Shown here piece after piece: positions 24,877 through 25,707 of a DNA stretch of 64,000 bases (position 1 is its first letter; each line of letters starts with the position of its first letter). Location: sequence record PZ452579.1; one strand, given 5' to 3'. The position numbers were made by a program, and so were the translations under genes. The notes under the pieces were generated by a model, which had not been told where the DNA came from, ran no database searches, and saw only the letters and a list, made by a program, of their open reading frames with translations. The stretch comes from a phage.

Positions 24877-25187
24877 AAGCCTTGCGGCAACCTTGTCGGG
24901 GTTCCACCTGCTAAGGCAAGTGTTTGTACGAAACGCCGGGATTCGAACCCGGTTATTAAGTAGTTGACGCTACTCAATATTTTTAAAAGGCCATATCTCG
25001 ACCATATCCGAACGTTCCGTCAAAAACGCTACTCGGCTTACGGCAAAGATATTTCCTCGAATCGATAATTCTGTGCGCCGTTTCTGCTGTGATGTAATGG
25101 GATATTAACAAATCGTAAAGATTTATTAAGACCAGTCCTTACTCAGGGAACATCAGTCCGACGACTTACCGGTAGCGACCCGGCTTC
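24877..25187 (-). ncRNA. structured non-coding region with tRNA-like 3' domain (candidate small stable RNA or degenerate tRNA)
   Basis: About 310 nt without convincing ORF between a CDS stop and a terminator; contains T-arm-like CCGGG-TTCGAAT-CCCGG (about 24936-24952) plus possible acceptor pairing, but no canonical D/anticodon arms found by hand. Confidence 0.3.
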
Positions 25188-25532
25188 TTATTTTGACATA
25201 TCATCAATTTGCTCTCGACGCCGACGCCATAGATTAATCGCTTCATTAACACATTCGGCGTTTGGTATATGACGGCAATAATATAATGATTCACGTTTCT
25301 GGAACCGATGTTGCAATGGTATTTCGTTTAAAAGGTCTTTACGGTCAAAGTATTCAAAACTAGTTAACCCAGAACGGTTTTTAATGAACTTCCAATGTCC
25401 AAATTCATTTTGAACATAGATGTAATCGGCATGCTGATACAGCGAATTAATCAATCGATGAGAAATAACTGTGTCATATTCGTTAAAATAAAACGTTAAA
25501 TCATGAACTACCAGATAAATATTGCCTTTCAT
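25188..25532 (-). CDS. hypothetical protein
   Basis: Track ORF 25188..25580 starts at a TTG inside tRNA-Arg; ATG at 25530-25532 with GTGAGGA RBS gives 114 aa (MKGNIYLVVHD...). Confidence 0.5.
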   Translation of the reverse strand: MKGNIYLVVHDLTFYFNEYDTVISHRLINSLYQHADYIYVQNEFGHWKFIKNRSGLTSFEYFDRKDLLNEIPLQHRFQKRESLYYCRHIPNAECVNEAINLWRRRREQIDDMSK

Positions 25533-25550
25533 ATTTTCCTCACTTAAAGT

Positions 25551-25627
25551 TGGTCGAGACAGAAGGATTCTAACCTTCAACCTACGGATTAGAAGTCCGT
25601 TGCTCTATACAATTGAGCTATGCCTCG
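25551..25627 (-). tRNA. tRNA-Arg (anticodon UCU), CCA encoded
   Basis: Hand-folded cloverleaf: acceptor CGAGGCA/TGTCTCG, D-stem GCTC/GAGC, anticodon loop CUUCUAA, T-arm GAAGG-TTAGAAT-CCTTC, 3' ACCA. Confidence 0.75.
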
Positions 25628-25633
25628 AATATA

Positions 25634-25707
25634 TGACCCAGACCAGATTCGAACTGGTAACCTTTCCCTTATGAGGGGACTGCTGCTAACCATTGAGCTA
25701 CAGGGCC
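25634..25707 (-). tRNA. tRNA with anticodon CAU (Ile2/Met type), no encoded CCA
   Basis: Hand-folded: acceptor GGCCCTG/CTGGGTC (one U-U mismatch), anticodon loop CUCAUAA, T-arm ACCAG-TTCGAAT-CTGGT; 6 nt upstream of tRNA-Arg. Confidence 0.65.

Follow-up and report, generated by a model that had tools for sequence, protein, structure and literature searches.

What occupies a stretch of some 310 nt that sits beside the tRNA genes of a T4-like phage and carries neither a convincing reading frame nor a recognisable tRNA? The locus in question lies in a 64,000-nt stretch of phage DNA (sequence record PZ452579.1, here called the window), for which a first-pass annotation had proposed three identities: homologs of the small stable RNAs of T4, a degenerate tRNA with a long arm, or something new. 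Over positions 24800-25760 the window shares 95.8% identity with RB69 and as much as 98.9% with other Mosigvirus records, and a sequence search with this interval matched 778 phage records; judged by this similarity, it comes from a T4-like phage of the RB69 type (Mosigvirus). Every feature of the region 24848-25794 is carried by the minus strand, to which the coordinates below refer unless noted otherwise. We are highly confident that the locus as a whole is best explained as an RB69-type tRNA operon with orthologs of the T4 RNAs rnaD and rnaC.

The 310-nt region aligns with rnaD and rnaC of T4

Along its entire length, the segment 25191..24927 can be aligned with T4 rnaD followed by T4 rnaC. 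The rnaD (species 2 RNA) ortholog at 25191..25072 is 86.7% identical to its T4 counterpart over 120 nt, and the rnaC (species 1 RNA) ortholog at 25065..24927 reaches 99.3% identity over 139 nt, with a score of 152 bits under a covariance model of the family. Homology extends over the full length of both RNAs, and rnaC is found on the same strand and in the same orientation within the tRNA cluster. The order of the elements, tRNAs, rnaD, rnaC and terminator, is that of T4, where the two RNAs are annotated as small stable RNAs beside tRNA-Arg; as species 1 and 2 they have been known since the 1970s. By its alignment the region is identified as the ortholog pair of these already known RNAs. The first of the three proposals is thereby borne out, and the third, something new, finds no support. 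The idea of a degenerate long-arm tRNA captured the shape of rnaC, with its acceptor stem, T-arm and two long arms, but not its nature, as it is not a decoding tRNA. In RB69 and most related GenBank records, rnaC is unannotated or labelled as a hypothetical protein.

In agreement with this assignment, ARAGORN and the Rfam tRNA model (RF00005) found no tRNA in 24877-25191, and the interval holds no cloverleaf with a D-arm and a 7-nt anticodon loop, so that a canonical tRNA was rejected; rnaC nonetheless has an acceptor stem that stacks on a T-arm with T-loop consensus. No Rfam family reached its gathering score in 24877-25191. In a permissive scan (E<=10) of 24780-25760, the only minus-strand match within 25191..24877 was to tRNA-Sec (RF01852), which scored 17 bits (cut-off 47; E = 2.5). 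This weak match is caused by the T-arm of rnaC, and the identity was rejected for its score. The sole YrlA (RF02553) match (17.8 bits against 69, E = 0.96) falls on the genuine tRNAs at 25602-25662 and not on rnaC or rnaD, and isrK, matched on the opposite strand, reached 16 bits where 50 are required; together with a plastid match, these candidates were set aside as weak, on the wrong strand or on real tRNAs. A tmRNA was rejected as well, since ARAGORN called none and a tag reading frame is lacking.

On comparison of reading frames, none is conserved in rnaC, where the best one is open in 17 of 37 distinct sequences, or in rnaD, where it is open in 1 of 15, and the lengths of both RNAs vary between sequences by steps of 1 nt. 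Hence the earlier impression that the region lacks a convincing ORF (open reading frame) was correct, and neither of the two findings that were to speak against a structured RNA, canonical tRNAs throughout or a conserved coding frame, was seen by ARAGORN, Rfam or frame comparison.

Covariation supports a tRNA-like four-way junction in rnaC

The predicted folds are far more stable than those of shuffled sequences: z is -4.56 for rnaC alone and -6.0 when all 361 nt are folded. From fold and covariation, rnaC consists of an acceptor-like stem of seven positions (25064..25058 with 24935..24929), a long arm P2 of ~70 nt that starts directly after the acceptor strand (25057..24989), a conserved A-rich linker, a hairpin P3 of 9-10 bp with a 6-nt loop (24979..24954) and, one nucleotide further, a 5-bp T-arm, CCGGG-UUCGAAU-CCCGG (24952..24936), which is continuous with the 3' strand of the acceptor stem. 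The T-arm and acceptor-like pairing noticed at first pass are thus real. The acceptor-like stem contains two invariant U.U pairs, while its pair 3:70 alternates between A-U and G-C; covariation is seen at this pair and at pair 3 of the T-stem.

RNAalifold on a MAFFT alignment of rnaC gave 38 pairs, and compensatory changes were seen in 23 of these. When 37 distinct sequences were aligned with the covariance model, 27 of 43 pairs were changed on both sides, and 98.7% of the cells were in standard pairs, compared with 87.2% after column shuffling and ~40% when the partners were slid by 1-3 columns; none of 500 shuffles reached the observed values. The model-based alignment favours the structure, as it is fitted to the model, but aligning with MAFFT alone led to the same result. 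rnaC is a non-decoding, tRNA-like four-way junction.

The T-loop reads UUCGAAU in most sequences. Kanagawaviruses of the Entb_45 type carry UGCAUGC at this position (L003 1621-1637) with the rest of the RNA conserved, and a canonical T-loop is therefore not indispensable. The acceptor stem is followed by UACA in most lineages and by UCCA in Marfavirus and PM2; in T4 the annotated end of rnaC lies two nucleotides past the stem, at UA and not at CCA.

As rnaC has the topology of a tRNA without D-arm and anticodon loop, tRNA finders occasionally call fragments of it. One such case was encountered in locus L041 (8491-8585, minus strand), where ARAGORN reports a 'tRNA-Met(cat)' of 95 nt within the rnaC homolog because an internal CGGAACG pairs perfectly with the 3' acceptor strand. 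This alternative acceptor pairing was rejected: a U->C change in the 3' strand is matched by A->G in the 5'-terminal strand, while the G->A change in the internal segment gives an A.C mismatch.

A putative kissing loop and the fold of rnaD

The apical hexamer of P2, UUGACG (25023..25018), and the P3 hexaloop, CGUCAA (24969..24964), are perfectly complementary in antiparallel orientation. The helix they could form is 99.5% paired in the model-based alignment. In Marfavirus the hexamers become UUGGCG and CGCCAA, a compensatory exchange of A-U for G-C, and 4 of the 6 pairs are retained in PM2. An intramolecular kissing loop of six base pairs between the P2 apex and the P3 loop is hence plausible as a model. 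IMG/VR, metagenomes and BLAST searches with the most divergent member, PM2, yielded no further rnaC lineage.

The predicted fold of rnaD comprises a 5' hairpin, CCGG-GUCGCUA-CCGG (25184..25168), and a long irregular hairpin (25165..25073), and on folding this two-hairpin architecture recurs in all T4-group types. In the long hairpin the proximal stems and the internal loops (GUUCCCUG and AGCAGAAAC) are invariant, while the distal half is of unrelated sequence between lineages and retains its hairpin form. Across 15 sequences, neither of the conserved flanks varies. In RNAalifold, accordingly, the conserved parts offered no variation and the variable tip could not be aligned, which left covariation statistics uninformative for rnaD.

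rnaC and rnaD are separate modules

A joint rnaD-rnaC query matched 799 phage records. Homologs of rnaC occur well beyond T4 and RB69, in many genera of the Tevenvirinae and in Marfavirus: in Kanagawavirus (Entb_45, L003; Kosakonia 305, L004; PEi20, L016), Karamvirus (KaAlpha, L019; Pet-CM3-4, L027), Gelderlandvirus (Melville, L018), Moonvirus (NM4.3, L020), Kagamiyamavirus (EcS1, L021), Marfavirus (EI, L022; VAC36, L023; Marfa, L024), Mosugukvirus (PM2, L025) and the unclassified phages Erwinia COW86c (L026) and Citrobacter Ursula (L017). With a covariance model built from 22 sequences, 48 full-length copies were found in phage, IMG/VR and metagenome loci. A loose pattern occurred at 73 places in 185,579 bacterial genomes, none of which matched the rnaC covariance model; these are chance matches in GC-rich DNA.

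In many relatives rnaC lies within the tRNA array, separated from its neighbours by about 4-6 nt. It stands mid-array between tRNA-Trp and tRNA-Gly in Karamvirus, Gelderlandvirus, Erwinia phage COW86c and others; in Melville, for example, tRNA-Trp occupies 823-896, rnaC 902-1044 and tRNA-Gly 1052-1126. rnaD has a narrower range and was found in Tequatrovirus, Mosigvirus, Gaprivervirus and JS10-like phages. The two RNAs are separate modules, since each occurs without the other: rnaD without rnaC in CUA3 and TH55, and rnaC without rnaD in Kanagawavirus.

Two further arrangements were observed. Upstream of rnaC, the marfaviruses carry a weak rnaD-like element (L022 428-517, L023 368-457 and L024 366-455; nhmmer E ~1e-5), which retains AAGUCGUCG…GUUCCCUG…AUCACAGC…CGGCGCA and overlaps an annotated CDS (coding sequence) in L023 and L024. 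In the Gaprivervirus TH55 (L006 1617-2122) about 500 nt take the place of rnaC; they include an ORF of ~127 aa and a GC-rich hairpin (…CGGACGGTGCGTCCGGTA…) present as two direct repeats, and are followed by the same trailer hairpin and terminator as in the window.

GenBank places CDSs of hypothetical proteins on top of several rnaC homologs (L022 918-1055, L023 917-1054, L024 916-1053, L004 1532-1660, L017 863-973 and L020 844-1017), some of them with ribosome-binding sites. These CDSs are very probably false genes.

Two tRNAs and a small ORF precede rnaD

In the whole 64-kb window ARAGORN found exactly two tRNAs, both on the minus strand. The tRNA(CAU) at 25707..25634 (Rfam tRNA, 54.0 bits) is labelled tRNA-Met(cat) by ARAGORN and is the ortholog of T4 tRNA-Ile, and the tRNA-Arg(UCU) at 25627..25551 (71.1 bits) reads AGA; the CCA end is encoded in tRNA-Arg (25553..25551) and not in tRNA(CAU). 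Both the presence of adjoining CAU and UCU tRNAs and the contrast with the eight tRNAs of the syntenic T4 cluster had been recognised at first pass, and they are confirmed here by ARAGORN, Rfam and the T4 annotation. The same complement, Ile-CAU* and Arg-UCU, has been described for RB69 (PMC1524935), and the RB69 record annotates these two tRNAs and no others. Hence the reduced set is real and already known from RB69.

The tRNA(CAU) combines a CAU anticodon with an Ile-type body. According to Nolan et al. (PMC1524935), the CAU tRNAs of T4-like phages are lysidine-modified Ile tRNAs and are assigned to IleRS. The AUA reading proposed for this tRNA in the first-pass annotation fits, as it is identical to T4 tRNA-Ile at 73 of 74 positions, and the sequence is consistent with a lysidine-type tRNA-Ile with a predicted lysidine at C34. 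The tRNA-Arg(UCU) is very unlike the T4 tRNA-Arg(UCU) (L002 3174-3248) in sequence and resembles that of CUA3; it seems to have been exchanged and not inherited along with the cluster.

Between tRNA-Arg and rnaD lies a 114-aa ORF (25532..25188). Its ATG at 25532 is preceded by GAGG and stands 18 nt past the CCA of tRNA-Arg, and its stop codon (25190..25188) falls on the first few nucleotides of the rnaD ortholog. The ORF corresponds to the annotated 345-nt RB69ORF150c and matches phrog_3355, a phrog of unknown function, with E = 8e-50; no Pfam family scored above the cut-off. In slur04 and IME340, too, it is found upstream of rnaD. A mechanically called start, TTG 25580 (ORF 25188..25580), was set aside, as it lies inside tRNA-Arg, while ATG 25532 agrees with RB69ORF150c. 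An overlap of this TTG with a tRNA had been noted and is real, but the tRNA concerned is the second in the direction of transcription and the first only when read along the plus strand. Likewise, the 310-nt region does precede a terminator, as described at first pass, but it does not follow the tRNAs directly, since the 114-aa ORF intervenes.

A single transcription unit is suggested by the anatomy of the locus

A sequence resembling a MotA-box type middle promoter, TGCTTTA-12 nt-TATTAT (25794..25770), is located ~63 nt upstream of the first tRNA. The assignment is a consensus match only; the pattern TGCTTYA-N11-13-TANNNT occurs 8 times in the window against 1.68 expected matches. We consider the site a candidate start of the transcription unit. 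A leader hairpin, AAAGGUACUCUAAAGUGCCUUU, was noted at 25728-25749 between the promoter-like site and tRNA-Ile.

At the other end, fold and alignment indicate a trailer hairpin, CACUUGC-CUUA-GCAGGUG (24922..24905), followed by GGAACCCCGACAAGGU, which is retained even in phages without rnaC and shows one compensatory change, G-C to A-U, in locus L101. RNase III cleavage has been placed 3' of T4 species 1 RNA, and the hairpin may be a processing site. It is followed by a predicted intrinsic terminator, GCCCC..CC-GAAA-GG..GGGGC and then UUUUU (24876..24848), whose hairpin is kept in 19 distinct tails. A simple terminator scanner made no call at 24876..24848, since an internal loop interrupts the stem. 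From the promoter-like site at 25794..25770 to this terminator, a single minus-strand transcription unit of ~0.9 kb would result, from which the tRNAs, the ORF, rnaD and rnaC would be co-transcribed, as we infer from the anatomy of the locus.

A possible role for rnaC and rnaD

RNase P, RNase III or RNase E have been implicated in the processing of rnaC and rnaD in T4, and mutants lacking the T4 tRNA region are viable in laboratory strains. In rnaC, the acceptor-like stem stacks on a canonical T-arm, with two long hairpins in place of the D and anticodon arms. In the mechanism we propose, host tRNA-processing enzymes would most likely cut rnaC from the precursor, RNase P at the 5' end followed by 3' trimming, and the excised molecule would accumulate as a stable RNA; such tRNA-type excision is suggested by the acceptor/T-arm minihelix and the tRNA-like spacing in the array. 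rnaD is a separate module of a 5' hairpin and a long hairpin with invariant internal loops. Both may act in trans as accessory RNAs that bind a putative tRNA- or RNA-recognising protein of host or phage and modulate infection in a host-specific manner, with no part in decoding.

In T4, RNAC was confirmed by Northern blot as an abundant, discrete and stable RNA, of about 140 nt, whereas T4 rnaD measures about 119 nt; both RNAs were classed as late, of unknown function, and termed 'small regulatory RNAs' (PMC9697503). That their biological roles are unknown had also been stated before (PMC3014915). In a recent adaptation experiment to the host ECOR34, three lines carried the same single-nucleotide polymorphism (SNP) in rnaD, whose effect the authors treat as putative, and virulence rose from 0.17 to 0.98 (PMC12685909, 2025). 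An accessory, host-specific role in trans, for rnaC through a putative tRNA-recognising protein partner, is our best guess; it is favoured by the patchy, modular presence of the RNAs, the hint from the rnaD SNP and the viability of the T4 deletions.

Other explanations of the region differ in how much of the evidence they accommodate. A tRNA T-arm and acceptor stem in what are tRNA slots, the tRNA labels given to parts of rnaC by ARAGORN (the 95-nt call in L041) and by some GenBank annotators, and the reduced tRNA set of RB69-type phages would all suit functionless pseudogenes, decaying from a larger set of the T4 type. Decay is, however, difficult to reconcile with an rnaC that is 99.3% identical between window and T4 while the flanking coding DNA is 73-91% identical, with invariant loops, with two non-tRNA arms maintained by compensatory changes across many genera, or with an abundant and stable RNAC in T4 (PMC9697503). 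We regard this explanation as largely refuted and scarcely credible. To one or more small proteins, as annotated in many GenBank records, we give practically no credence. Mechanical ORFs do exist (24792..24977, minus strand, 61 aa; 24983..25111, minus strand, 42 aa; 24964..25068, plus strand, 34 aa), CDS features have been placed there in several phage records, and a GAGGA near the 5' end of rnaC resembles a ribosome-binding site. This motif, though, is taken up in pairing at the base of arm P2, substitutions are paired across helices and not codon-periodic, and, as given above, no frame is open throughout the sequences, with indels in steps of 1 nt.

The remaining two alternatives grant the RNAs a function of a different kind. 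Structured 3' ends shield RNA from exonucleases, and rnaC and rnaD could act only in cis, as a 3' trailer that stabilises the tRNA transcript or directs its processing. Their position at the 3' end of the T4 and RB69-type units, before a conserved hairpin and terminator, would agree with this. In Karamvirus, Gelderlandvirus, COW86c and others, however, rnaC stands mid-array between tRNA-Trp and tRNA-Gly, the trailer hairpin and terminator persist without it, and a mere roadblock would not need invariant loops paired between arms, which makes a purely cis role quite improbable. Regulatory small RNAs that base-pair with host or phage mRNAs would match the invariant internal loops of rnaD (GUUCCCUG, AGCAGAAAC) and the invariant A-rich linker of rnaC, which could serve as single-stranded segments, and the name used in PMC9697503; as no Rfam family of small RNAs was reached at gathering score, the isrK match included, we consider this unlikely as well.

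Several points also weigh against the accessory role in trans and the processing scheme proposed above. The promoter, the co-transcription and the RNase P processing are all deduced from T4 and from the anatomy of the locus. The kissing loop is supported by one independent covarying event, and remains so because no new lineage was found, and the modelled rnaD fold draws solely on an architecture that recurs with swapped sequence. A charged or CCA-tagged rnaC mimic is unlikely in T4-type phages, as the end of T4 rnaC at UA speaks against aminoacylation. The rnaD SNP (PMC12685909) could be standing variation of the ancestral stock or could act on neighbouring genes, and the protein partner of rnaC and rnaD is a putative one, again at the level of a best guess.

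Taken further, rnaC may represent a phage-wide family of tRNA mimics, locked by the kissing loop, excised by host enzymes and serving as decoy or adaptor for a tRNA-recognising protein, with rnaD in the same host-specific pathway. As a whole this proposal is doubtful, and we put it forward tentatively. If true, the partner might be, for example, a host defence nuclease that targets tRNAs or a tRNA processing or modifying enzyme, and the shared pathway would explain the recurrent rnaD SNP (PMC12685909).

The RNAs themselves and the tRNA pair were known before; new are the rnaC fold, the putative kissing loop, the lineage-dependent tip of the rnaD hairpin, the wide distribution and the corrected annotation. 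The latter fills a gap, as the records of RB69 and of most of its relatives either omit rnaC and rnaD or wrongly list them as hypothetical proteins or tRNAs. The function of T4 rnaC and rnaD has gone unexplained for about fifty years, and the question is now more tractable with a covariation-backed fold of rnaC, a proposed tertiary contact that can be mutated (UUGACG/CGUCAA) and the behaviour of rnaC as a cassette in tRNA slots across many genera. Fold, contact and distribution would support a curated RNA family for rnaC, which is absent from Rfam.

Comparison with known systems

The tRNA complement shows no notable difference from that of RB69, with the same pair in the same order and spacing. 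At the RNA level there is also essentially no difference between rnaC of the window and of T4 (NC_000866 70908-71046): the two agree at 138 of 139 positions and in their predicted fold, and in both phages the RNA has rnaD on its 5' side and the same trailer hairpin and terminator on its 3' side. T4 rnaD (NC_000866 71053-71171) shares the two-hairpin architecture with its ortholog and is nearly identical in its first 48 and last 25 nt, whereas the distal half of the long hairpin has another sequence but keeps its stem, and the 3' end reads ...CACCA in T4 and ...CACAG in the window. In T4 no ORF separates tRNA-Arg from rnaD, the gap being 1 nt, while the 114-aa ORF is inserted here.

With canonical tRNAs, especially those of class II with a long extra arm, rnaC has the topology of the four-way junction in common, and also the acceptor stem of 7 positions that continues into a 5-bp T-stem with a UUCGAAU loop. 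It differs from them in the lack of a D-arm and of a 7-nt anticodon loop, in the two U.U mismatches of the acceptor stem, in its length of 139-146 nt and, in most lineages, in the lack of an encoded CCA. A retained acceptor/T-arm module combined with loss of decoding is likewise found in tmRNA and YrlA; in YrlA the ends of the molecule form the Ro-binding stem, whereas in rnaC they form the acceptor stem.

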